Source: a virus
Direction: 5' to 3' (one strand)
DNA: 64,000 nt
UHGV virus genome: UHGV-0101699
Below are positions 5,399-19,575 of the stretch, in pieces. The stretch's first letter is position 1, and the number at the start of each line of letters is the position of its first letter. Below the pieces are notes generated by a model. The model did not search any database, was not told where the DNA came from, and saw nothing but the letters and a program-made list of their open reading frames with translations. The position numbers and the translations under genes are program-made.

Positions 5399-6133
5399 TC
5401 ACTTTGATTCTCCCTTCTCTAGCAAACTTTTAATGTCAATCTGTAGGTTGTCTGGCCCTTCGATCACGTCGGACATCCCAGCTCTCATTGCGGCGCCAGA
5501 TACGTATGCCTCAATTTCCGCCTTGCCTGACGATACGATTTTATCCATCGACTCCTGCATCAACCTGGTGGAGAAAGAAAGATTAGATGGCAAATTGGCC
5601 GTAGCTGCGCGCAAAGATGCATACACATCCTCCAGCTCACGCTTCCCTGCTCTGCCCTTCTTAACCAGCTCTCCTAAACGAGCAACTTCGTCCATAATCC
5701 GTTCAATTTCTTTAGATGCCGTTGCCTCAATTTGAGACTCGAACTTGTCACGAATGCTCTTCTGTTCTGCAATATCAGGGAGACGTTCTGCATCTCCTGA
5801 ACTGCGGTAAGAAATTGTGCAAGGCACCCCATCGCCAACGCCGAAGCTGCTGACCATTGCTGCCCACTGGGCCTGGCTGAGTCGAATTTCTACGATCGGT
5901 CTGCGCTTATAGGTGCTTCTTCTAGGGGTCGGATGCTCACGATCCATCGTCATTTCTGCTTCGTATACACCGATCTCAATGTATTCGTGGTGTTTCAGCT
6001 CCGAATCGAATAGACGAATGCCGGTTGTATGTACCCGGCTGGTTTTGACAAGACCGAATGCCGGGTGCGACTGGATGGTTTCGCCATGTTTGTTTGTGCT
6101 AGTTATCGGATTTTCAATTCTACGATTGCTCAT
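5399..6133 (-). CDS. hypothetical protein (244 aa)
   Basis: Long ORF packed between neighbours. No motif recognised. Confidence 0.5.
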   Translation of the reverse strand: MSNRRIENPITSTNKHGETIQSHPAFGLVKTSRVHTTGIRLFDSELKHHEYIEIGVYEAEMTMDREHPTPRRSTYKRRPIVEIRLSQAQWAAMVSSFGVGDGVPCTISYRSSGDAERLPDIAEQKSIRDKFESQIEATASKEIERIMDEVARLGELVKKGRAGKRELEDVYASLRAATANLPSNLSFSTRLMQESMDKIVSSGKAEIEAYVSGAAMRAGMSDVIEGPDNLQIDIKSLLEKGESK

Positions 6134-6134
6134 A

Positions 6135-6368
6135 TCATCCTCTGTATTCGATAAACGCTAGGGGAAGCTGTTCAACGCTGTAACCGTTTTGCAGCTCGTT
6201 GGTAAAGACACGCTCAACCACTCGTCTGTCTGGGTTGAACATGTAATTTCCGGGATACTTCGTTTTGAATACATTTCCGTCTTTCACCAGCCACCAGGCG
6301 TCCACGATGGCTACCCGGTAACTACGTGGCACTGTCACATTTGACGTTGGGATTGGGATTAATTCCAT
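6135..6368 (-). CDS. hypothetical protein (77 aa from ATG at 6368; track uses upstream TTG)
   Basis: The ATG at 6368 follows a stretch of the track ORF that is better read as non-coding and contains the AACCAAGTTGTT palindrome. Confidence 0.4.
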   Translation of the reverse strand: MELIPIPTSNVTVPRSYRVAIVDAWWLVKDGNVFKTKYPGNYMFNPDRRVVERVFTNELQNGYSVEQLPLAFIEYRG

Positions 6369-6415
6369 ATTAGTAACCAAGTTGTTTTCTTATTGGTGAT
6401 AATACCCATAAAAAA

Positions 6416-6436
6416 ACGGCGTCCAATGGACGCCGT
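6416..6436 (-). terminator. rho-independent terminator hairpin ACGGCGTCC-aat-GGACGCCGT, T-run on minus strand
   Basis: 9-bp GC-rich stem followed on the minus strand by TTTTTTT. Lies downstream of the 6451..7281 gene. Confidence 0.75.
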
Positions 6437-6450
6437 AACTTTGTTGAGGG

Positions 6451-7281
6451 CTATTTAATAGTAATGAAAGGAGTGTTTGCGCCCTGTGTCATGTATTGAG
6501 GCAACTGACCATTCCACTTATTGATAGCTTCAAGTTCCATGACATTAGGGTTCTGGCGTAGTGCTTCACCGCGTAATTTAATCGCATCAGCTTCTGCTTG
6601 AGCGCGTTTGCGGATAGCATCAGCTTCACCTTCCGCTTGTTCGCGTAGCATGTTTGCTTCAGCTTTACGTTGCTCGACTTCCTGCTGGCGCTGGAGAGTC
6701 TTCTGGTTCGCGGTAACTTTGGCATTGATGGATTCAATGACAGTGTCAGGGTAGTCAGGTTTCCCTACCCACGACAGACTCAAGACTTCTATGCCTACCG
6801 GTGTCATTTCTTTCTGAATATCTTTGAGTGCATTATCGAGTAGTGCAGCTTTTCCACCGTCAATGAAAGCATCCGTGGTCATGCGGCTAGCAAGTCTGTT
6901 TAAAGAGTCGGCAATCTTCTGGCGAAGATCAGTGTCGGTAATATCATCAACACCTTTCCGATAAGTTTGGAAAACCGTGGTTACCTTGTCGCGATTGACC
7001 AGGTACGCAACACCGATTTTGTGGCCAATTGCAGTACCGTCACTCATTTGAAAAGTGAAAGGTTCATCGTATGTTTTCATCTGCTTAAATGTGGGGAATA
7101 CGTAGAGTTCGGTATTGATGCCCGTCCACTGACGGCCCACGCCAACAACCTCCCCAATTCCCTTGTCTTCGCCTAGTTTGTTGACCTTAATGCCAACGTA
7201 ACCTGGCTCTACACGATCACAACCACTAAGGCCCATCGTACAAATCGCAGCCAGTACTATCGCCAATATACCTTTCTTCAT
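6451..7281 (-). CDS. SPFH/band-7 (HflC/HflK/prohibitin-like) lipoprotein
   Basis: Lipobox LSGC after a signal peptide. The SPFH core is followed by a charged coiled-coil (EQRKAEANMLREQAEGEADAIRKRAQAEADAIKLR), typical of the family. Confidence 0.7.
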   Translation of the reverse strand: MKKGILAIVLAAICTMGLSGCDRVEPGYVGIKVNKLGEDKGIGEVVGVGRQWTGINTELYVFPTFKQMKTYDEPFTFQMSDGTAIGHKIGVAYLVNRDKVTTVFQTYRKGVDDITDTDLRQKIADSLNRLASRMTTDAFIDGGKAALLDNALKDIQKEMTPVGIEVLSLSWVGKPDYPDTVIESINAKVTANQKTLQRQQEVEQRKAEANMLREQAEGEADAIRKRAQAEADAIKLRGEALRQNPNVMELEAINKWNGQLPQYMTQGANTPFITIK

Positions 7282-7484
7282 TACTTATTCTCCTGAGATT
7301 TTTTGAGTGAGTTGATATACCGGCGTCCTGCGATGAGACCTACAACTGGGAACCCAAAAGCCATAAAAAGGCCGATTAACAGAGCCACATCGCTTTTAGC
7401 CGAAACAAGCGAAGGGACCAGCAATCCGTAAACAAAAGCGACTGATAACACAGTCAAAACCGCCATCAGATAACCTTTAATCAT
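7282..7484 (-). CDS. small 2-TM membrane protein, probable NfeD-like partner of the SPFH protein
   Basis: 67 aa with two hydrophobic helices. Its stop abuts the SPFH gene start. SPFH genes are usually paired with an NfeD-type membrane protein. Confidence 0.5.
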
Positions 7485-7514
7485 GTGTGTCCTTACGTTG
7501 TTTTGTTTTCAAAT

Positions 7515-7533
7515 GATAAGTAAGTACTTATAT
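7515..7533 (-). promoter_or_regulatory. copy of dispersed box (GATAAGTAAGTACTTATAT)
   Basis: About 30 bp upstream of the 7484 start, just after the recA terminator. Confidence 0.5.
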
Positions 7534-7551
7534 ATTTTCAAGTATCAAAAT

Positions 7552-7570
7552 AGGCGTCCAATGGACGCCT
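7552..7570 (-). terminator. terminator hairpin AGGCGTCC-aat-GGACGCCT downstream of recA
   Basis: Same stem sequence as the 6416 hairpin. Followed by TATTTTGAT on the minus strand. Confidence 0.7.
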
Positions 7571-7575
7571 TTACG

Positions 7576-9921
7576 TTACTCGATGGTTTCTGTAGTGCCA
7601 GAAGACAGGTCTTTAGCTCGACGTTCGTCGATGGCCTGTAGCGCCGCAATGATCTCAGGAAGGGGCTTATCACGATACATGTCGACTATCTGCGATTTGG
7701 TGTACTTCTTGTCGCCAATCTCTACGCGGCCGCTGGCATTCTTTGGCAGGTATCCTTCTTCGAGCATGTGCTCAACCAGTGACTCGATAACGTCCAGACC
7801 GCGGGTCGGGTCGAAGTAGAATTTCCATGAGCATTTGCCGAATGGCGGTGCCACTTTGTTTTTGATGCACTCGGCGCCAACGTCCTGACCGATCTTATCT
7901 TTGCCATCCTTCATGACAGAAGCGCCAAGACGAATACGTACTGAGGCGTAGAACTTCGGAGAATCACCACCAGGGGAGGTGGTCGGATCGCCAAACATCA
8001 CGCCGATTTTTGTACGAACCTGGTTAAGGAAAATAATGCAGGCATTGTACTTGCGCGCCCATAGCGCCAGCGTTGGAAAGTTGGCGCTCGTGGCGCGAGC
8101 CAGGGCCGTATTATCGTTCATGTTTAGCTGATCTTTATCCTTCGCTGTACCTTCCGCCATTTTGTCGAACTTCTCGGCTTTGGAGTTTGGCACCATTGAC
8201 GCAAGGGAGTCGGCTACGATGCAAATAGGGGCGTCTGCGGGGATCAGCTCTTCGTCTCGCACCAGTTTCAGGATGGTGCCGATCAGCTCAACCGATTCTT
8301 CGAATGTGTCCGGCTGCTTATAGACCCACTGGCCGTCATCCTCATCCGCATTCAGCCCGTTTGCCACCGCCAGACCAACGTCAAAGCTGTTTTCGTGGTC
8401 GAGGAATACAGCCAGACCCTCCTGTTTCTGAGCGGAGACCATGGCGGCCGTCGCCAGGAATGTGTTGTGGCTGATAATCCCGTTAGACCAGAAAGAGTGT
8501 GTTTCCGGCATCGCTACGTCGAACGTTGGTGCTTCACCTTCCTCAATAGCCACGACTTCGTCGTAGAACAAGTTAGAGTCAATTACCGCTGCCAGTTGTG
8601 CAAACAGATGCTCGTTAAAACGATTCTTTCTGCCAATGAAGGAGACATAGATTTCTCGCAGTTTGTCTATTCCGACACGATCGCCGCGGCCAATAACGTG
8701 ATCTACCAGAACGTAGTCTTTACGAGAGGTCTTGGTGAGTGACTCGTAGAGTGATTTCACTAAGCCGCTGATGTGCGGAACGTAGCCTAAATAAGTGCGG
8801 TCAAAACTAATGTCCCGTTTGGTTGCCACTGCTAAACGAGCCGGAGACTCGAACCCAATCGTTGACAGGAAAAGGTCGTAGTTAGAGCCACTGAATGACA
8901 GCCGGTAATATATGTTTTTATAACCTGCGACGTGTTTTTCAGAGATAGTTGACGTAATCCCCAGATTCAGGAGCATGAGGCGAATTTGCTGTAGCAGCAG
9001 CCCACTCGCGCTCACAACCTCAATGCAGCGACCATCATTGACGTGGCATTCCAGCTCAAAGTAGCCGCGAAGGAATGCAATTTGAGCCTCGCTATTGGCG
9101 CGACGCACACTCAACGGAACCTGCTTGCCAGCAGCTTTCTCATACTCCAGACCATATTCTTTAAAAAGCAGCGAACGCACCTCTTTGCTAAACAGCACAT
9201 GGTCTTCCGAGCCGTTATGTTTTCTCGTAACTGGCATCTTGTCTGATACCAGCGAAATGAGGCGGTAGTACTCATCCTTGATGAATGGATCTGTGTTAGA
9301 AAAATGCACAGAATTTTCAGAGGCCACGTATCCGTCAGCAATTAAATAGCCCATCAGTTTTGCGATATTGGCATCCAAGTGCTGATCGCCGAATTGATGT
9401 GTGCCAACCATTGAAGGAATCGTGTCGCCTACACTGATTTTTTCAGCATACCGCCAGACGATATTGCCTAAGTCGTCAACCACACGAATTGGGTGACGGA
9501 ACGTAGCCTCGATGTAACCCCCTGATGCCAGCTTAATGCGCTTGAATTTGCGACGGTTGTTCCATGTCAGGTGTGAGGTCTTCTCTATCACGCCATTTTC
9601 ATTGATGAGTCCAACGTTATGCTCTACATCGCGAGTAGTGCATGTTGCTTTGTGCCCCTCAATCTCAAACAGTTCTTTCACTGTTACCATTCCACGCTCC
9701 GTCAGCAGCATGGTGTCTGCGGTAACACATTTCCCCGCACTTGGCGGCCCAAAGATCTCAACGATACGTCCGCTTGGGAAACCGCCGTCATAGCGCCCGG
9801 AGATGGCTTTATTCAGCGGAGGGAAGCCGGAATCAATCCAGTGTGAAACCTTTTGGATCTCGTCATTGCTGCCGATTTTCTTTTTTAATGCCATTGCCAG
9901 TGCTGATTTTCCTTTTGCCAT
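7576..9921 (-). CDS. recA: RecA-family recombinase interrupted by a 422-aa intein at the P-loop
   Basis: Exteins align along their full length with E. coli RecA (GRIVEIFGPPSAGK|TFLA; IFLNQVRTKIGVMFGDPTTSPGGDSPKFYASVRIRLG; KNKVAPPF). The intein lies between GK and T. Confidence 0.85.
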   Translation of the reverse strand: MAKGKSALAMALKKKIGSNDEIQKVSHWIDSGFPPLNKAISGRYDGGFPSGRIVEIFGPPSAGKCVTADTMLLTERGMVTVKELFEIEGHKATCTTRDVEHNVGLINENGVIEKTSHLTWNNRRKFKRIKLASGGYIEATFRHPIRVVDDLGNIVWRYAEKISVGDTIPSMVGTHQFGDQHLDANIAKLMGYLIADGYVASENSVHFSNTDPFIKDEYYRLISLVSDKMPVTRKHNGSEDHVLFSKEVRSLLFKEYGLEYEKAAGKQVPLSVRRANSEAQIAFLRGYFELECHVNDGRCIEVVSASGLLLQQIRLMLLNLGITSTISEKHVAGYKNIYYRLSFSGSNYDLFLSTIGFESPARLAVATKRDISFDRTYLGYVPHISGLVKSLYESLTKTSRKDYVLVDHVIGRGDRVGIDKLREIYVSFIGRKNRFNEHLFAQLAAVIDSNLFYDEVVAIEEGEAPTFDVAMPETHSFWSNGIISHNTFLATAAMVSAQKQEGLAVFLDHENSFDVGLAVANGLNADEDDGQWVYKQPDTFEESVELIGTILKLVRDEELIPADAPICIVADSLASMVPNSKAEKFDKMAEGTAKDKDQLNMNDNTALARATSANFPTLALWARKYNACIIFLNQVRTKIGVMFGDPTTSPGGDSPKFYASVRIRLGASVMKDGKDKIGQDVGAECIKNKVAPPFGKCSWKFYFDPTRGLDVIESLVEHMLEEGYLPKNASGRVEIGDKKYTKSQIVDMYRDKPLPEIIAALQAIDERRAKDLSSGTTETIE
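8464..9729 (-). mobile_element. LAGLIDADG-type intein (homing endonuclease domain) inserted in recA Walker A
   Basis: It begins with Cys (GK|CVTADTML) and ends with ...IISHN|T. Two LAGLIDADG motifs are present (KLMGYLIADGYV, IAFLRGYFELECHV). The codon boundaries were checked against the nucleotide sequence. Confidence 0.8.
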
Positions 9922-12753: not shown

Positions 12754-13102
12754 TTTGTTATGTATCCGCTTACTAATTTATATCAATAGTACCATGAAGA
12801 AATCAGCTGGTGGAGCATGTGTCGTGAAGATGAGAGGGGGTAGGTTGGGTAGAGACGTTTATGTGGCGACGCTGTGAAAAGGAAAATAAATGTTGCACAA
12901 ACAGAAAGGCCATGCGTTAATGATTGCGTCGGTTTGCAAGACAGACCTTATGAAAGCAGTTTTAGTAAAGCAGTCCGAAGTTCAGGTGTTATCCAAAGAT
13001 TACCCTTCTCCGTGAGTCTCCTCCTAAGTGCCCAAGTAAGTACCAATCTCTCAGACCAATTTCGCCGCGTTGTGTGGCTCTCAAATAATGAAGGTAATCT
13101 CT

Positions 13103-13318
13103 ATGTCTAACAAAATGACTGGTTTAGTAAAATGGTTTAACGCTGATAAAGGCTTCGGTTTTATTACCCCAGCAGACGGCAGCAAAGACGTGTTCGTACA
13201 TTTCTCTGCCATCCAGAGCAACAACTTCCGTACCCTGGAAGAAGGCCAAAAAGTTGAGTTCTCTATTGAGAACGGTGCTAAAGGCCCTGCTGCTTCAAAC
13301 GTAGTTACGTTGAGCTAA
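13103..13318 (+). CDS. cspA: cold-shock protein CspA family
   Basis: [64 protein letters not shown] is near-identical in pattern to E. coli CspA. A long untranslated leader precedes it. Confidence 0.9.
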
Positions 13319-13475: not shown

Positions 13476-13896
13476 CTACTTTTCTACCGAAAATGTTTGA
13501 TAGAGTGACTCTGGTCTGCCTCTTAAGCCGGTATCTTCTGACGTCGCCTATCTTGCTCACCTCCATGAACTCCTTGGCCACCTTCAGGACAAGACGGGCA
13601 CGGAACGCTTTAAATGAAGCCAGCTCTTCTTCTGGTTTGTCAGATTCATAAATCTCCAGAAGATATTGGCACGCCTTTGGATCTTGCGTTTTTAAAGCCA
13701 GCGCACGCGCGCATTTCCGTAATCGACAAATAGGGTCGGCGCCATCCTGCTTTGCAAACGCCAATGCCAGATCGAGCGTGACAGGGCAGTCAATGATTTC
13801 CCAGAACTGGGATCGCAGAGTGGCTTCAATCGCCTTCTCCTGAAACTCCTGTGGTATTGCTGTGAGCTCTTGAGCAATTTTATCCGCTGCGCTCAT
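13471..13896 (-). CDS. hypothetical protein (start at second ATG, MSAADKIAQ...)
   Basis: The second ATG carries the conserved AAAGGAAAACAC-ATG context. Its start overlaps the dnaE C-part stop. Confidence 0.5.
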   Translation of the reverse strand: MSAADKIAQELTAIPQEFQEKAIEATLRSQFWEIIDCPVTLDLALAFAKQDGADPICRLRKCARALALKTQDPKACQYLLEIYESDKPEEELASFKAFRARLVLKVAKEFMEVSKIGDVRRYRLKRQTRVTLSNIFGRKVA

Positions 13897-13910
13897 GTGT
13901 TTTCCTTTAC

Positions 13911-15080
13911 TCATTTGTTAATAGTCTCCGCAACCTCTGCCAGAATGGCTTCCAGCTTTTCTCCTTCCTCTGGACGGAAGTACAAAATATTCGGGTTAAA
14001 TCCATAGAACACGGTCACGTCCAGGTCTGGCAGATATTCTTTGCGCCCAACAAGATCGGATGGCTTGCTCTTGTTATTAAACAGCGATGTCGCCCGGCTG
14101 CCGCACGTCAGCACGTAAGTTGGACGAACCAGATTTATCTCTTCCCGCATAAAGTCGATAAACTGGCCGATCTCATCTTTGGTGTAGTCTTTTTCCTTAT
14201 CCTTTACCTTTTTACACACGCCTGTGACATACAAATCACCCATACGCAGGTCACCAGAAACCAGCAACTTGGCTTTGAAGTCATCGTAGCCGTTCTCCAT
14301 GAAGTAGCCGGTACGTGCATCATTGCCATTGGCGTTGTCGAGTATGACCATAATTTTTGGCTTAATGCCGATGCTTGGTCGTATCAACTCATCGCCCAGA
14401 CCCATTTCTGCGGCCATGCGAGTCATCAGCACATTGACCTCTGCAGAGCGTTTTGGGTTCATTTCAAATGGGCGTGAAGCTTTCACCGCATCGATCACCA
14501 GATTGCCCATCAGCTCTGCCTGATCGCGCAGACGTTCCGGATCGGTCGCCGGCATACTGCCAGGTTCAATAGAGGCGAATGCACCAACCTTTTGTAGAGA
14601 CTCACGTACTCGGCTGTTACAGGCTCGCTTCTCGACCGCTTCCTCAAATTGCTCAAGTGACTCGAATTTGCCGCCAACTTTCTCACGCGCTCTCATGATG
14701 GCCTGGCAACCATTCTCAGAGCAGCCTTTCACAGCAGAGAATGGCGCATACAGAACCTGGCTGCCGTCTTCCAGCGTGCGGATCTCAATTCGGTTAGATG
14801 ACACGTTAACGTCTGGTGGCAATACGCGAATGCCATAGGTCAGCGCATCCTTAACCAGCCCCTGGTGCTTATCCTCGCCCAGAATGGTGAGAGCAGCAGC
14901 GAAGAACTCAGCAGGGTAATGTGTCTTTAACCACATAGACTGATAGCTGATCAGCGAGTAGGCAACGGAGTGTGATTTGTTGAAGGCATATCCACCGAAC
15001 TTCTCAAAGGCGTCCCATACTTCTTGGGCTTTCTCAGGGCTAAGACCTTCCTGCTCGGAAATAACTTTGGCAATTTTCAT
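13911..15080 (-). CDS. dnaE: DNA polymerase III alpha (DnaE-type), C-terminal part (fingers tip, beta-binding, OB, C-terminus)
   Basis: GYAFNKSHSVAYSLISYQSMWLKTHYPAEFFAA is the hallmark DnaE segment. Alignment with E. coli DnaE places the split between KNG and INAE. Confidence 0.8.
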   Translation of the reverse strand: MKIAKVISEQEGLSPEKAQEVWDAFEKFGGYAFNKSHSVAYSLISYQSMWLKTHYPAEFFAAALTILGEDKHQGLVKDALTYGIRVLPPDVNVSSNRIEIRTLEDGSQVLYAPFSAVKGCSENGCQAIMRAREKVGGKFESLEQFEEAVEKRACNSRVRESLQKVGAFASIEPGSMPATDPERLRDQAELMGNLVIDAVKASRPFEMNPKRSAEVNVLMTRMAAEMGLGDELIRPSIGIKPKIMVILDNANGNDARTGYFMENGYDDFKAKLLVSGDLRMGDLYVTGVCKKVKDKEKDYTKDEIGQFIDFMREEINLVRPTYVLTCGSRATSLFNNKSKPSDLVGRKEYLPDLDVTVFYGFNPNILYFRPEEGEKLEAILAEVAETINK

Positions 15081-15796
15081 GTGTTTTTCCCGTCATTAGC
15101 TTCAAACGCTAGCTTTTTTAAGATATTTGCGATTTGAGTGTTAGAGATGCCGAATTTTTCTCGCAACTTTTCATAGGTTGCGCCAGCCTTGCGCAAGGCG
15201 ACCACCTCAGCTCTTGCTTCAGCATCCAGTTTTTTGGATGCTCTTGAGACAACGATCGGCCCACCAACTCGTGCCCATTTCTTCCCGGTGACGATATGGT
15301 GAATGTAAAGCTCAGTTAAACCATATTCGGCCGCGAGGTCTTTGTTCAGAGCGCCTTCTGACTTTTTAATGCGAATAGCAATGACGACTTCGTTGGTTAG
15401 CTTGGCGTTGTAGCGCCTCTCACCAAACTCAACGGTATCGTGTGCAATGGCGTCAGCCATGTTGTCGACTTGAGTGCCATACGCGAGATTGGAGGGCGCA
15501 TTGTTTGATGGTCTTCCGTCAAGATGACGAATAAGTAAGCCTTCTGGTCGTTCTCCGTGGAATGCAGTTGCTACCAGATAATGGACTGTGCGGTCGCATT
15601 TGACGCCGTTGACGCTTAGTTTCACGCCCAGATGTCCAAAATCATTGATTACGCGAGGTTTGAGGATTTGCCCCTTCTTCACCCATTCGCCCCCATTGGG
15701 GGCTGTTCGTATAACATCTAAAGAGCGAATGCGACCTAAACTGGATGCTTCGTAATAACCTTCAAACTCAGGAATGGATTTCCAAATTTCTTCCAC
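15077..15796 (-). mobile_element. free-standing HNH homing endonuclease gene inserted within dnaE (NUMOD4 + HNH_3 type)
   Basis: EEIWKSIPEFEGYYEASSLGRIRS (NUMOD4-like) and HYLVATAFHGERPEGLLIRHLDGRPSNN (HNH). It sits exactly between the two dnaE parts with ATGA/TGA overlaps. The probable start is a GTG with a GGAG SD. Confidence 0.8.
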
Positions 15797-15798
15797 CG

Positions 15799-18162
15799 TC
15801 AAACTCCAAAATCAACAATATCAGCGTTATCACCAATCGCTTCGTCATAGGTTCTGCGTTTGCCGTCAGAGCACATCAGCTTGGCCTTTTTGTGGACTTC
15901 TACTGTGCTTCCGTTTTCAAGTGACAGTGTCACCCAACCTGCTTGCGCTCGTTCTACAAAATCGCTGCCGATCGCTTTCATCTTATCCATGTTCTTTTTA
16001 CCGATAGCGGAACGCAGAGCGTCAGCCTCAGCCATAGAGAATCCAGCGAGTACGCGAGAGCTTTTCATGATCTGCTCTTGATAGAGTAAAACGCCGTTGG
16101 TTTCTTTAGTTGCTTCCTCAAGACGCGGATGAATTGAATGTGGAGCCATAAAACCTTTTGCCACGGAGACATAGTCGTCCAACATGCCTGACTGAATTGG
16201 ACCTGGTCTGAAAAGCGCAGTTGTGGCCACAATGGTTTTGAAGCTCATTGGCTCGATACCACCACCCAGATCTTTGAGTAGCTTCCTCATGGGGCCGGAC
16301 TCAAGCTGGAACACACCTTGCGTATACCCCGCGGCGAATCCATCAAGTACTTTGCGATCATCCAGTGGGATGGCATCGAGGTTGACGTCCTTACCGGTGC
16401 TCTCTTTGATGTAACGTTTTGCGCTATCCAGCAGATCGAGAGTGGCCAGGCCCAGAACGTCCAGTTTGATCAGCCCCATGGCCTCGCAGTATCGTTTATC
16501 GAATGCGATGCAACGCGCGTCTCCACGTCGCTCTACAGGGGTACGTTCCGTCAGAGGTACGCCAGCAACAATCATCCCTGCAGCATGGCGGCCGAAGCCA
16601 CGCATCAGGTTTTGCAACTTGCTCGCCGCCTTAAATGCGTCCGGATGTTTGGTGGCGTACTTGTCCAGGCTGGCCAGCTGCTCGCGCAGCTCCGACAGAG
16701 ATAAACTGTCATCCTCCAGGGTCTTTAGCTCCTTGGAAACAGCCATATCCGCCGCATCAACTCCATAAATACGCGCTGTGTCGCGCAGTGCGGAAGCGGC
16801 GCCCAGATAAGTGAAGTTCGGAATGCCTGCAACATACTCTTCGCCATATCGGGCATTCAGATACTCGATCACCTCATGGCGCCGCGCCTGGCTAAAGTCC
16901 AAATCCGCATCCGGCAAGTCGAGACGTTCAGGGTTAATGAAACGTTCGAACAGAAGACCATGACGGATTGGGTCAACGTTAGTAATGCCGATGCACCATG
17001 CCACCAGAGAGCCGGCGGATGAACCACGACCTGGCCCGACAGGAATACCAGTCTCGCGACTATGATTCATCAGATCGCGAACCATCAGGAAATAACCGCA
17101 GAATCCCAGGCGAGTGAGCGTTTCCATTTCATACTTGAGGCGATCGACGTAAATGCGGTGCTCGGAAGCTGGTGGCGTGTAGCCAAATTCTTTGTTGCTG
17201 AGACGTTTTCGAAGCCCTGCGACAGCCAGTTTCATCAACGTTGCAGGCTCATCGTCTGCCATTTTTGGCAGCGCCGGCGCCATCTCGTGCCAGCGCCATT
17301 CGCACGCCTTAACAATGGAGTCCTGCGTTGTAGAAGCCATGGCGGCAGACACAGATACGCCCATCCGGACAGAAAACTCTTTCAGAGCCTGCAGCAGATG
17401 ACGGCGACCATTTATTGCATTGTCGCGCTGGTGGGGGATACGCAGCCGGTGTGGCTGATCGACTTTGATATTGTTCATCACCATGTGGGCGATGTCTTTG
17501 ATGTCAGCGTCATCAACCCCTTCGTAATAAGCTGGGTAAAACGCAACGGGCTCGATTTTCAGTGCGCTTGCCACTTTCATGGCTCGCACGTTGATCTGGT
17601 CATAGAATGGCGTAGGGTGTGGATATACGACGCTGTAGAAATTATCGCGTCCACCGGCAGTAATCAGCGCACTAATAATTTTAGCGAAGTCCGGGCGCTG
17701 GAATACGCTGCCGATATCCGAAGTCAGTAACAGTATATTGCCTTTAGCGTATGTAGCCGCCAACTGGTCGAGCGCCAGGCGTGGCACGAAGTAAAACTGC
17801 TCGCGGGTATTGGCTAAAGTCATTAGTTCGCAAATGTCGCGATAACCTTGCTCGTTTTTAATCAGTGCGGTGAAGCAGTAGTTACGTCCACGCTCCAATG
17901 ATTCCATACATCCATTAGACTCTTTAGCCAGTTTAGCCCGGTACTCGTATGTTGGATCGTCGACAACATTCAGCTTAACACCACAGATCACCGCCATCTC
18001 ATCGCCAGCTGCTCGTTGCAGGGGGATAACGCTGGCGATATTCATCGTGTCAGCAGAGATAACCGCGGTATAGCCAGCCTCCTTTGCCACCTTTACTGCG
18101 TGCTCTGCTTTCAGTGCTGATTCTCCCAGGGAAAAATCAGTCCTGACCATCAGTGCTTTCAT
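15799..18162 (-). CDS. dnaE: DNA polymerase III alpha (DnaE-type), N-terminal part (PHP, palm, thumb, fingers)
   Basis: PHP-domain N-terminus. The last ~45 aa (WVTLSLENG...DFGV) have no DnaE counterpart, so they are read-through after the split point. Confidence 0.8.
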   Translation of the reverse strand: MKALMVRTDFSLGESALKAEHAVKVAKEAGYTAVISADTMNIASVIPLQRAAGDEMAVICGVKLNVVDDPTYEYRAKLAKESNGCMESLERGRNYCFTALIKNEQGYRDICELMTLANTREQFYFVPRLALDQLAATYAKGNILLLTSDIGSVFQRPDFAKIISALITAGGRDNFYSVVYPHPTPFYDQINVRAMKVASALKIEPVAFYPAYYEGVDDADIKDIAHMVMNNIKVDQPHRLRIPHQRDNAINGRRHLLQALKEFSVRMGVSVSAAMASTTQDSIVKACEWRWHEMAPALPKMADDEPATLMKLAVAGLRKRLSNKEFGYTPPASEHRIYVDRLKYEMETLTRLGFCGYFLMVRDLMNHSRETGIPVGPGRGSSAGSLVAWCIGITNVDPIRHGLLFERFINPERLDLPDADLDFSQARRHEVIEYLNARYGEEYVAGIPNFTYLGAASALRDTARIYGVDAADMAVSKELKTLEDDSLSLSELREQLASLDKYATKHPDAFKAASKLQNLMRGFGRHAAGMIVAGVPLTERTPVERRGDARCIAFDKRYCEAMGLIKLDVLGLATLDLLDSAKRYIKESTGKDVNLDAIPLDDRKVLDGFAAGYTQGVFQLESGPMRKLLKDLGGGIEPMSFKTIVATTALFRPGPIQSGMLDDYVSVAKGFMAPHSIHPRLEEATKETNGVLLYQEQIMKSSRVLAGFSMAEADALRSAIGKKNMDKMKAIGSDFVERAQAGWVTLSLENGSTVEVHKKAKLMCSDGKRRTYDEAIGDNADIVDFGV

Positions 18163-18340
18163 GTGTTTTTACCTTCTGTTTTTTCTTAATTTTGTCGTTG
18201 GGGAAGCCGACGAACTTCCCGTATATCGAAATCGCAACTCCTTTGGCTGCCTGGTGGCAGTCAGGCCTGTGAGCGCATGACAAACAGGCCGCGCCAGTTT
18301 CAGAAGCTGCGATAAGAGATCCAAAACAACCTTTACGCAC
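18137..18340 (-). CDS. small Cys-rich protein (67 aa), tentative
   Basis: Possible Zn ribbon (CLSCAHRPDC). Overlaps the dnaE start by 26 nt. Confidence 0.3.
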   Translation of the reverse strand: MRKGCFGSLIAASETGAACLSCAHRPDCHQAAKGVAISIYGKFVGFPNDKIKKKQKVKTHESTDGQD

Positions 18341-18342
18341 GA

Positions 18343-19575
18343 TTAACCGAAGATTTTCTGAACCACTTCACGCGCCGCTTGCGCAGAGGTGGAGGGGAGT
18401 TTATTGATGAATGACTTCTCGATGCCGGCTGCGAAATCACCTCGCATCATTCCGATTTTTGCGGACAGAAGCAGCTCACGCGGGCCGATTGGTTGGCTGA
18501 TCAGGTGTTGCTCATACCCGTCTCGTACCAGATTGGCGAACTTAACCATTTTTTCGGCGTATTCACGGATGATTCCCGCTTCAACCAGCATGTTCACCTC
18601 AGCACCAGGCTTCATGTACTTGACGTGAGATACGATGCCAAAGCGAGAGAAGTTAGCCGCGTTCTGGATGTTCGTTCCTTGATAAAGCCCCGTTTCATCC
18701 CCTGAACCATTAGTGTTGCCTGTACCGATGAAGGCGAAGCGCTTATGCGGCGCCACGCGACGCCAGTCAGGTGTCGCTTCTTTGATTACGAGTGGTTCGC
18801 CTTCCAGAACTGGCTGGTAGATCCCCAGAATCTGCGGGAATGCAAAATCGTATTCGTCTGCCAGATAGACCCAACCGTTCTTCATCGCCAGCGACAGAAG
18901 CCCAGGTTCAAAGTAGGTTGTGCCTTCTCGCGCCAGAATCTGGCCCGTAATATGGGCTTCCTCAGTTGATGCCGTATGCTGTGAGCGGATAACCGGGCGA
19001 TTCAGGAGCGCGCAAAGCTGGGTTGGCAGAGAGGTTTTCCCCGTACCAGCATGACCCCACAGATAACCAGGAATGCCGATCTCCAGCATCATGAAGATGT
19101 CTTTAATCAGATCGAAGTCGCCGTATACATAGCCGGCTTTCACTTCTGGCACGAACTCCGGATATGGCGTGTTGATGTTGACCGTCACCTGAAGGGGTTT
19201 GCCTCGGGGCGTGCCAAGTTCCTTGATAGTCAGGCCAAGCAGCTCGTGCGCGGCGACAAGCTCAGTTTTGTATTCGACTGTCCCTGCATAGCCAGGGTGG
19301 GAACTGATATCCGCGATTTTGCCGTCTGCGCCAGCCTTCTCAGAGCGTTTATTCTTTAACGCTTCAATGGCCTTTGGAGACAGCGTTGGTTCCCCGGGGA
19401 ATGCTGTGGTGTACATTTTCACTACGTCATCCACACCAAGCCCTTTGGCTTCTTCCGGAATTCCTTCGCACCGACCCATCGAAATGTGGGATTTGAGGTG
19501 ATGGAAGGATTTTCCGCACCATTTGCAGGTGACGGCATCAGAGTGGGCGTTTTGTGGTAGCGCAGTCGCGGTCAT
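18343..19575 (-). CDS. AAA+ ATPase, MoxR/CobS-like
   Basis: Walker A GHAGTGKTSL. N-terminal CxxC...C zinc motif. Paired with a downstream vWA protein in the CobS/CobT arrangement. Confidence 0.7.
   Translation of the reverse strand: MTATALPQNAHSDAVTCKWCGKSFHHLKSHISMGRCEGIPEEAKGLGVDDVVKMYTTAFPGEPTLSPKAIEALKNKRSEKAGADGKIADISSHPGYAGTVEYKTELVAAHELLGLTIKELGTPRGKPLQVTVNINTPYPEFVPEVKAGYVYGDFDLIKDIFMMLEIGIPGYLWGHAGTGKTSLPTQLCALLNRPVIRSQHTASTEEAHITGQILAREGTTYFEPGLLSLAMKNGWVYLADEYDFAFPQILGIYQPVLEGEPLVIKEATPDWRRVAPHKRFAFIGTGNTNGSGDETGLYQGTNIQNAANFSRFGIVSHVKYMKPGAEVNMLVEAGIIREYAEKMVKFANLVRDGYEQHLISQPIGPRELLLSAKIGMMRGDFAAGIEKSFINKLPSTSAQAAREVVQKIFG

Follow-up and report, generated by a model that had tools for sequence, protein, structure and literature searches.

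In this work, the gene for a C-family (DnaE-type) DNA polymerase carried by the viral sequence UHGV-0101699 was found to be broken into two parts, with a homing endonuclease gene lying exactly in the gap. The whole stretch that was analysed, 64,000 nucleotides (nt) in length, is called the window below. Our overall reading, which we regard as probable, is that dnaE is here a gene-in-pieces: two polypeptides that assemble non-covalently, a catalytically dead tail and leader of intein origin at the ends facing the break, and a mobile endonuclease gene between them. The three adjacent open reading frames (ORFs) that the original prediction had described at 13911-18162 are present in the ORF list; they and all features within them lie on the minus strand. 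The upstream part, dnaE-N (15799..18162), encodes 787 amino acids (aa) plus a stop and comprises the PHP domain, the palm/thumb and most of the fingers domain. The downstream part, dnaE-C (13911..15080; 389 aa plus a stop), comprises the remaining fingers with the FNKSH motif, the HhH/beta-binding region and a C-terminal domain resembling uracil-DNA glycosylase (UDG). The Pfam matches are PHP, DNA_pol3_alpha (E=1e-73) and DNA_pol3_finger (E=3e-46) for dnaE-N, and HHH_6 together with a weak match to the UDG superfamily for dnaE-C. The PHP, palm (DNA_pol3_alpha), FNKSH fingers and HhH domains that characterize the C family thus all occur, in order, across the two genes.

Because residues S8..H37 of DnaE-C align with A731..H760 of E. 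coli DnaE, a mapping already proposed from the sequence and reproduced here, the break falls at about N734/G735 (E. coli numbering), inside the fingers domain and 24 residues before K758. The alignment extends overall to E. coli residues 731-896, and K35 of DnaE-C corresponds to K758 of the FNKSH motif. The original prediction had called for a comparison with the intact dnaE of relatives. In pJN2-26, ST13-OXA48phi12.3 and SSU5, which lack the endonuclease, dnaE is a single gene of 3519 nt encoding 1172 aa. The concatenated N and C products are colinear with this intact protein, with 4 extra residues at the junction and a length difference of 733 nt, and DnaE-N by itself is colinear with residues 1 to about 785 (pJN2-26/SSU5).

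The window is an SSU5-like Klebsiella phage-plasmid. Its dnaE region is 98-99% identical to SSU5-group Klebsiella phage-plasmids, and positions 14700-16400 are 100% identical to the K. pneumoniae plasmid NZ_CP092338.1. The split arrangement with the endonuclease gene was found in 243 of the 769 matching PLSDB plasmids (Klebsiella 181, Enterobacter 44, Citrobacter 8, Escherichia 7, Salmonella 2, Kluyvera 1) and in three phage records. Given the complete match to NZ_CP092338.1 and these plasmids and phage records, the arrangement is neither a one-off nor an assembly artefact. All three ORFs are intact in the phage record vB_KpnS_p4727 (from a lake; the record is marked unverified) and in an E. 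cloacae plasmid, and intact split ORFs were seen in Klebsiella, Enterobacter and E. albertii plasmids; no good-quality relative examined had a disrupted half. The K. variicola plasmid p_AC125 (L006; our own L and P numbers denote related loci and proteins) was set aside as a low-quality sequence with frameshifts throughout. The exact protein cluster of DnaE-C, P0006, has 1459 member sequences. In the gene tables of the plasmids examined, dnaE-C is unlisted or labelled 'hypothetical protein' or 'uracil-DNA glycosylase'.

Tail and leader at the gene break

dnaE-N closes with a 45-aa tail, W743-V787 (15802..15936), and dnaE-C opens with a 12-aa leader, MKIAKVISEQEG (15045..15080). Both had been described as having no counterpart in DnaE. 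This holds for canonical DnaE, but the two are not unique to the split form, since SSU5, pJN2-26 and others have a homologous segment in frame within their intact DnaE of 1172 aa. The GKK and FNKSH motifs are 40-41 aa apart in DnaE of the E. coli type and of most phages, and 96 aa apart in the window; across a survey of 100 related loci, the SSU5 group and all split genes had a distance of 88-96 aa. The longer spacing comes from an inserted segment of ~57 aa that separates 'G(A/C)xxG' from 'G(L/M)S', and in all split lineages the break falls directly before the conserved M-x-K-I-(A/V)-S of the leader.

Two profiles of this segment were searched (hmmsearch) against all PDB sequences (177,635 entries): A2, a hidden Markov model of 16 fused tail and leader sequences, and A5, built from 32 mostly different tails and largely independent of the former. 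The best 13 matches of A2 were all cyanobacterial DnaE split inteins, with E=9e-8 to 1.6e-5; they included 7qil (E=9e-8), the Npu entries 2keq, 4kl5, 4lx3 and 4qfq, and the Ssp entries 1zd7, 1zde and 3nzm. A5 retrieved the same DnaE inteins at E=2e-7 to 2e-4, and the best unrelated match had E>=1.4e-4 over 12-16 residues (for A2, 16 residues at E=1.4e-4). The A2 alignment covers Npu residues 62-108; it starts in the block-B region, reaches the final N-intein residue and continues into the 'IKIA' of the C-intein. Overall, the tail is equivalent to residues about 58-102 of the Npu DnaE intein, and the leader to what is left of the first beta-strand of the C-intein. Furthermore, A5 matches, with 31 bits, the C-terminal 40 residues of the N-inteins that end the metagenomic DnaE proteins P0193 and P0225. 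These N-inteins are complete, with both Cys1 and C-T-x-N-H present.

The predicted fold points in the same direction. AlphaFold gave a predicted local distance difference test (pLDDT) score of 36 from a single sequence, and a 129-row alignment was used instead. With it, the fused junction was modelled at pLDDT 91 and a predicted template modelling score (pTM) of 0.82, with pLDDT of 89-96 over the segment and 94-96 in the tail; the leader came out as an extended beta-strand (residues 169-178 of this model, with pLDDT about 95). A Foldseek search with this model returned DnaE first and then mainly inteins (Npu, Ssp, DnaB, RecA and gp41-1), with 2keq at a probability of 1.0 over 63 columns and 4qfq/4lx3 at 1.4-1.5 Å and 32% identity over 41 residues. 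The element is therefore homologous to the Hint domain in both sequence and predicted fold, although only about 40% of the domain remains. Profiles and model together identify tail and leader as a truncated, catalytically dead remnant of a DnaE-type split intein. The A2 alignment crosses from the N-intein into the C-intein at the gene break, which, like the endonuclease gene, thus lies exactly at the natural split/endonuclease-insertion point of the intein.

Some related genes contain a genuine intein as well. In three-piece DnaE genes (L075 628-4271, P0050, P0193, P0212), a genuine split intein is present in addition to the remnant break, with the Hint N-half on piece 1, the '...HN/S' C-half on piece 2 and a Pfam-less ORF between them, so that the palm or the fingers are broken. 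The complete N-inteins of P0193 and P0225 lie at GFNK/C.

Mobility of the endonuclease and spread of the remnant

The endonuclease gene (15077..15796) encodes 239 aa plus a stop from a GTG at 15796, or 241 aa from a TTG at 15802. The GTG is the likely start because a GGAG lies 7 nt upstream, PGAP uses this start and the ATG of a decayed copy is its homologue. Pfam agrees with the 239-aa HNH (NUMOD4) enzyme that had been proposed for the gap (HNH_3, E=4e-11; NUMOD4, E=3e-10; in addition a C-terminal helix-turn-helix, HTH), and residues 5-171 align with I-HmuI (1u3e) at E=7.5e-10 (phmmer). The product is best described as a free-standing, I-HmuI-like HNH homing endonuclease for which site-specific nicking or cleavage of the endonuclease-free allele would be predicted. 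The ratio of nonsynonymous to synonymous substitution rates (dN/dS) of its gene is 0.10-0.17.

The original prediction placed overlapping stop and start codons on both sides of this gene, which is correct for one side only. Upstream, the stop of dnaE-N (15799-15801) lies 2 nt before the GTG and there is no overlap. Downstream, the endonuclease stop and the dnaE-C start do share an ATGA (15077-15080), and this is a property of the window, because its A6 run (15114..15119) has a 1-nt deletion compared with the A7 of most relatives, as seen in the junction comparison with L004/L005/L006 (match lengths 711 vs 712 nt). The deletion lengthens the endonuclease ORF by 8 codons, the last 2 residues being swapped for 10 others. 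In the A7 relatives sequenced here (L004, L005, L105, L106), the endonuclease has 231/233 aa and its stop lies 19-21 nt before the ATG of dnaE-C. The stop/start overlap that results from the A6 run could alter translational coupling.

By comparing the window with endonuclease-free and endonuclease-bearing elements, a mosaic structure of dnaE was observed. Outside a central segment, the gene is 96-100% identical to the endonuclease-free pJN2-26, and from ~370 nt upstream to ~450 nt downstream of the endonuclease the identity drops to 33-90%. The same central segment shares 86-100% identity with E. hormaechei and E. albertii plasmids that carry the endonuclease, although their backbones are only ~80% identical. 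The segment at 14631..16173, consisting of the endonuclease gene and these two flanks on a pJN2-26-like backbone, is thus imported, and we read the mosaic tract as the classic co-conversion signature of homing. Together with the sporadic distribution among plasmids, this shows that the endonuclease is mobile now or was so recently. It reached the window by gene conversion, along with ~0.8 kb of flanking donor dnaE sequence.

The content of the gap varies among relatives. Two endonuclease architectures occur at the same gap, NUMOD4-HNH_3(-HTH) in the window and L077, and HTH-NUMOD3-HNH_3 in L014, L031 and L043. Relics of the NUMOD4-HNH_3 type were found in L010, L019 and L075; in L010 and in Xenorhabdus hominickii (L019) the relic has 72 aa, in which the NUMOD4 start is joined to the C-terminal HTH and the HNH core is deleted. 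In L008/L009, L011, L012/L013, L037, L038 and L042 the same break is kept with only 49-84 nt between the halves. Across the family, the gap cycles through an intact endonuclease of either architecture, decayed copies and a bare spacer. The endonuclease-free spacers (L037/L042 4431-4500; L011/L012 4429-4500; L008 4917-5000) contain conserved inverted repeats, e.g., GAAAACAAGTTGTTTT…AAAACAACTTGTTT, and GTAAACAA occurs three times in the L008 spacer; these repeats may be regulatory hairpins or operator sites. Two of these relatives carry other mobile or variable genes next to dnaE. L010, a relative of Xenorhabdus-type whose remnant matches that of X. hominickii L019, has upstream of dnaE (1-2232) a CobS-like AAA_5 gene with a LAGLIDADG_3 domain, which suggests an intein in that gene. 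In the split-dnaE relative L011 (GCA_900130115.1), the variable region just 3' of dnaE-C (6078-8255) contains DpnII/MboI-like and PycTM (Pycsar-type) genes, suggestive of an anti-phage defence islet.

The remnant is widespread. Among 1.84 billion representative proteins searched, at least 20 clusters of full-length DnaE-N (745-791 aa, representatives at 50% identity) terminate just after the tail, and contiguous forms carrying the remnant were only the SSU5 type and P0212. Since at least 20 split clusters stand against two contiguous forms, the split is the predominant state of the ~57-aa segment. Within the sample, four split lineages that are only 35-52% identical to the window are closest to contiguous, remnant-free genes, as pairwise identity confirms for three of them: L043 is 70% identical to L044, L077 79%/67% to L080 and L075 67%/53% to L061, while the nearest match of L058, to L072, is weaker (~62%/44%). 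Because bacterial DnaE lacks the segment and the nearest relatives of these split genes are contiguous and remnant-free, repeated horizontal gain of tail, endonuclease and leader would be the simpler reading, for which a neighbour-joining tree on long branches is not proof. This reading is drawn from the tree and the pairwise identities and not from the comparison of regional identities, in which the remnant of distant lineages was no better conserved than the flanking fingers.

On the other hand, the contiguous forms have three different junction lengths (88, 92 and 96 aa), which suggests independent in-frame re-fusions, with the direction of change as we infer it. In the SSU5-type DnaE, a Met is kept at the position of the dnaE-C start. 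L035 represents an uninterrupted allele of the window's own haplotype, without 'FGV*...MKIAK'. In some lineages, including SSU5, the halves form one frame, in which the remnant is kept as an internal insertion.

Expression and proposed assembly of the two halves

A purine-rich, Shine-Dalgarno-like motif is found 8-14 nt before the ATG of dnaE-C in 14 of 15 split lineages, from which we infer that dnaE-C is translated independently from its own start codon. A scan for promoters and terminators found none between the dnaE halves, which is weak support for co-transcription. We hypothesize that dnaE-N, the endonuclease gene and dnaE-C are co-transcribed, that each is translated from its own start codon, and that neither RNA splicing nor protein splicing joins the halves. 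The original prediction had left open a group I intron instead. An intron of group I or II that carries the endonuclease ORF and is spliced from the mRNA would be in keeping with the intron-encoded nature of I-HmuI, the closest solved relative of the endonuclease, and the frame offset of the halves in the window would suit the removal of a 3n+1 insert. However, Rfam cmscan of 13500-18500 with permissive filters returned no intron family at E<=10 and only two chance hits. The 733-nt insert relative to intact alleles is filled by the endonuclease ORF, which alone takes 720-726 nt and leaves no space for a non-coding ribozyme core, the spacers of relatives are as short as given above, and dnaE-C has its own conserved ATG with the motif before it. 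We therefore give the intron practically no credence. Fusion of the halves by read-through or frameshifting was ruled out, because the frame offset between them is 0, 1 or 2 depending on the lineage.

Post-translational joining by some unconventional protein trans-splicing would draw on the homology of tail and leader to split-intein halves, but none of the catalytic residues remains. Only about 57 of roughly 137 intein residues are left. About 58 N-terminal residues, including Cys1 and block A, are missing in 32 of the 32 tails examined, and the first residue of the element, directly after the DnaE 'G(A/C)xxG', is W/F/Y/Q/V and not a Cys/Ser nucleophile. In the profile alignment, the TxxH of block B is lost, Npu Thr69 being replaced by a conserved His and His72 by a variable residue (Ala in the window). 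The leader spans 11-13 aa, with E/D/N/Q/P as its last residue and an invariant Gly directly after it; it has neither blocks F/G nor the terminal Asn, and a +1 nucleophile is missing. Where related DnaE genes contain true inteins at other positions, by contrast, the canonical '...HN/S or C' junctions are preserved. Judged by these motifs, the element cannot splice, and we regard trans-splicing as extremely improbable. The earlier statement that the locus is not a split intein was hence right insofar as nothing can splice, but it missed the homology of tail and leader to the halves of DnaE split inteins.

Both halves are under strong purifying selection. Among endonuclease-bearing lineages, dN/dS is 0.034-0.051 for dnaE-N and 0.014-0.025 for dnaE-C, compared with 0.032 for a pair of intact dnaE genes. 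In the co-converted region of tail and leader it is 0.014-0.10, and the divergence there post-dates the split. The proposal that the polymerase is encoded as two polypeptides, in the manner of T4 gp39/gp60 or split nrdA, is in agreement with the intact ORFs, the separate ATG, dN/dS of 0.01-0.05 and a break that persists with a gap of 49-84 nt. DnaE-N (about 88 kDa) and DnaE-C (about 43 kDa) would assemble non-covalently into an active polymerase, in which the acidic tail and the basic leader may pair as in the 'capture' step of split inteins, alongside the native interface of the fingers domain. In all 11 lineages, the tail carries a net charge of -1 to -5 over its last 20 residues; that of the leader is 0 to +3 over its first 8. 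This pattern is consistent with the capture-and-collapse account of split-intein association and its electrostatic 'capture' step (summarised in PMC11766414). Tentatively, and with slightly less than even confidence, we further suggest that tail and leader are exapted capture strands. They would serve only as a non-covalent clasp that travels with HNH genes as a splicing-free gene-breaking cassette, which invades naive dnaE and is then lost or sealed into a contiguous gene, as in SSU5.

Several points weigh against our overall reading. These elements carry an IncFIB plasmid replicon, so the polymerase may be dispensable for plasmid maintenance and matter only for lytic replication, and one SSU5-like Klebsiella plasmid (dnaE state not known) gave no phage particles after mitomycin C (PMC8969562). 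The split gene could accordingly be a decaying pseudogene of functionless fragments in an element replicated by host DNA polymerase III. We find this very unlikely, given that both ORFs are intact in all good-quality relatives examined, that dN/dS is the same as for intact dnaE, and that the split form occurs in at least 20 divergent clusters and in one phage isolate. Moreover, SSU5-like Enterobacter elements are inducible and packaged (PMC9600943), though their dnaE state is not established. As to the remnant, per-sequence Pfam scans of the 57-aa element found no Hint family and only chance matches. The AlphaFold alignment is shallow over the remnant, and the model may merely echo sequence similarity to inteins in the training data. 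Among the homologous proteins retrieved, mostly short fragments, there was no complete intein at N734/G735; the matching complete inteins lie 20-24 residues downstream, which leaves the route from intein to remnant unexplained. With its position in DnaE different from that of every complete intein found and its catalytic motifs all absent, the segment might be no more than a lineage-specific insert in phage DnaE which homing endonucleases happen to use as their target, its intein likeness being due to chance or convergence. This is improbable in our view: two largely independent profiles at E ~1e-7 place DnaE inteins alone at the top, the alignment stops at the intein split point exactly at the gene break, the modelled structure matches at 1.4-1.5 Å, and the patchy occurrence among close relatives is that of a mobile element. 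Finally, the break lies inside a large helical domain whose extensive native contacts might suffice for assembly, with tail and leader as inert leftovers. The contiguous forms tolerate junctions of different length, and in Aeh1 NrdA the tails were reportedly dispensable for the formation of the heterodimer itself (PMC3045599). We consider such inertness unlikely, because length and motif (xVEVxLxDG...H...DG..T.EE) are conserved over at least 20 clusters at <=50% identity, none of them trimmed, because dN/dS in tail and leader is low (0.014-0.10) and their charge complementarity is conserved, and because no remnant-free split was seen at this site, L079 (organisation unresolved) aside.

Three further features of the replication region were observed. 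The C-terminal ~115 aa of DnaE-C (window 13911-14260) form a UDG-superfamily-like domain (PF03167, E=0.0024, aa 275-342), which stands where bacterial DnaE has its OB-fold/tau-binding end; the distant relative P0095 has the same UDG Pfam call, and one GenBank record labels the C-part 'uracil-DNA glycosylase'. Directly upstream of dnaE and overlapping its start lies a small Cys-rich ORF (…GCFGS…C..C…C; window 18137-18340, minus strand), with longer counterparts sharing the motif in very distant relatives (L043 802-1380, L058 1254-1856, L077 861-1343). A gene for a CspA-family cold-shock protein (window 13070-13318, plus strand; L001 1104-1319) adjoins the replication module, and its pJN2-26 homologue, labelled 'putative portal protein', appears to be misannotated.

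Significance and comparison with known systems

In the open-access literature, no description was found of a split dnaE in the SSU5 group or of an intein remnant at a gene break. The biology of mobile elements gains a missing case here: an element of intein origin that has lost splicing, yet remains conserved where an important gene is broken. Two subjects so far discussed apart are thereby connected, namely fractured genes in which the split intein still works and genes-in-pieces that element-derived tails hold together. If the clasp and cassette proposal is true, it adds to RNA splicing and protein splicing a third, evolutionarily stable means by which a homing element neutralises its own damage, and the clasp would directly show that heterodimerisation domains can arise by the decay of split inteins. 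It would also suggest a compact dimerisation module of ~45+12 aa from the best-studied split intein, with potential use in protein engineering. In practical terms, the split explains the inconsistent annotation of dnaE-C in a family with 243 clinical Klebsiella and Enterobacter phage-plasmids among its members. The natural alleles (split with the endonuclease, split without it, decayed and re-fused) offer a tractable system for the endonuclease life cycle and for the assembly of a fragmented polymerase.

In sequence, the remnant is related to the split intein of cyanobacterial DnaE (Ssp/Npu; Wu et al., 1998; PDB 1zd7, 2keq, 4kl5), which likewise lies in the fingers domain close to FNKSH. The tail and leader of the window are homologous to residues about 60-102 of the cyanobacterial N-intein and 1-5 or more of the C-intein. 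In cyanobacteria, however, the dnaE halves are at separate loci, there is no endonuclease, and the products are covalently joined by trans-splicing. The cyanobacterial insertion presumably lies 20 residues downstream of the break in the window, at Y754/C (AEY/CFN junction). As for the endonuclease, I-HmuI of phage SPO1 (1u3e) shares with the window enzyme a NUMOD4-like N-terminus, an HNH core, C-terminal DNA-binding helices and a phage polymerase gene as its target. The gene of I-HmuI lies within a group I intron that interrupts a family-A polymerase gene, whereas the window enzyme is free-standing in dnaE.

Replicative enzymes in two cistrons are known from T4-related phages, as in the split PolB gp43A/gp43B of Aeromonas phages 25 and 44RR and in T4 gp39/gp60 with mobA (reviewed in PMC2988022). 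There, as here, the inter-cistronic content varies between an endonuclease gene and an untranslated spacer. The gp43A/B and gp39/gp60 fragments co-purify and are active, as the halves in the window would; the polymerase family is a different one, and no intein-related sequence has been reported at those breaks. The NrdA-a/MobE/NrdA-b system of Aeromonas phage Aeh1 was reportedly treated by Friedrich et al. in 2007. In that system, the tails that arose with the insertion of mobE are essential for the activity of the split enzyme (Crona et al., 2011, PMC3045599). Both there and in the window, a free-standing HNH-type endonuclease gene sits exactly at the discontinuity of a gene that has a contiguous homologue in relatives, and the Aeh1 polypeptides reassemble without splicing. 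The Aeh1 enzyme is the product of an essential gene of nucleotide metabolism, while that of the window is a C-family polymerase. Furthermore, the NrdA tails are unique and have no known homologue, in contrast to those of the window, which are recognisably of intein origin, are conserved across lineages and persist after loss of the endonuclease.

In its construction, the locus is like the 'fractured genes' that Dassa et al. described (2009, PMC2677866), in which a split intein and a free-standing endonuclease gene occur between the halves, three metagenomic DnaE loci among them. These resemble the window in that a phage-type DNA-synthesis gene consists of two adjacent ORFs with a free-standing endonuclease between them, with intein-derived ends at the C-terminus of the first product and the N-terminus of the second and a break at the canonical split point. 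They differ in that their inteins are complete (N-part of 88-105 aa, five catalytic residues) and predicted to trans-splice, whereas the window retains ~45+12 aa and none of the catalytic residues; it has the split halves and the free-standing endonuclease of this class, but no intact, splicing-competent split intein. The endonucleases of the loci of Dassa et al. are GIY-YIG or Vsr-like and that of the window is of the HNH family, and it was predicted in the same study that HNH enzymes could fracture genes (PMC2677866). Since tail and leader are homologous to the split-intein halves around the split point, the locus is best understood, as far as its sequence tells, as a degenerate derivative of the fractured-gene arrangement and not as a plain insertion.

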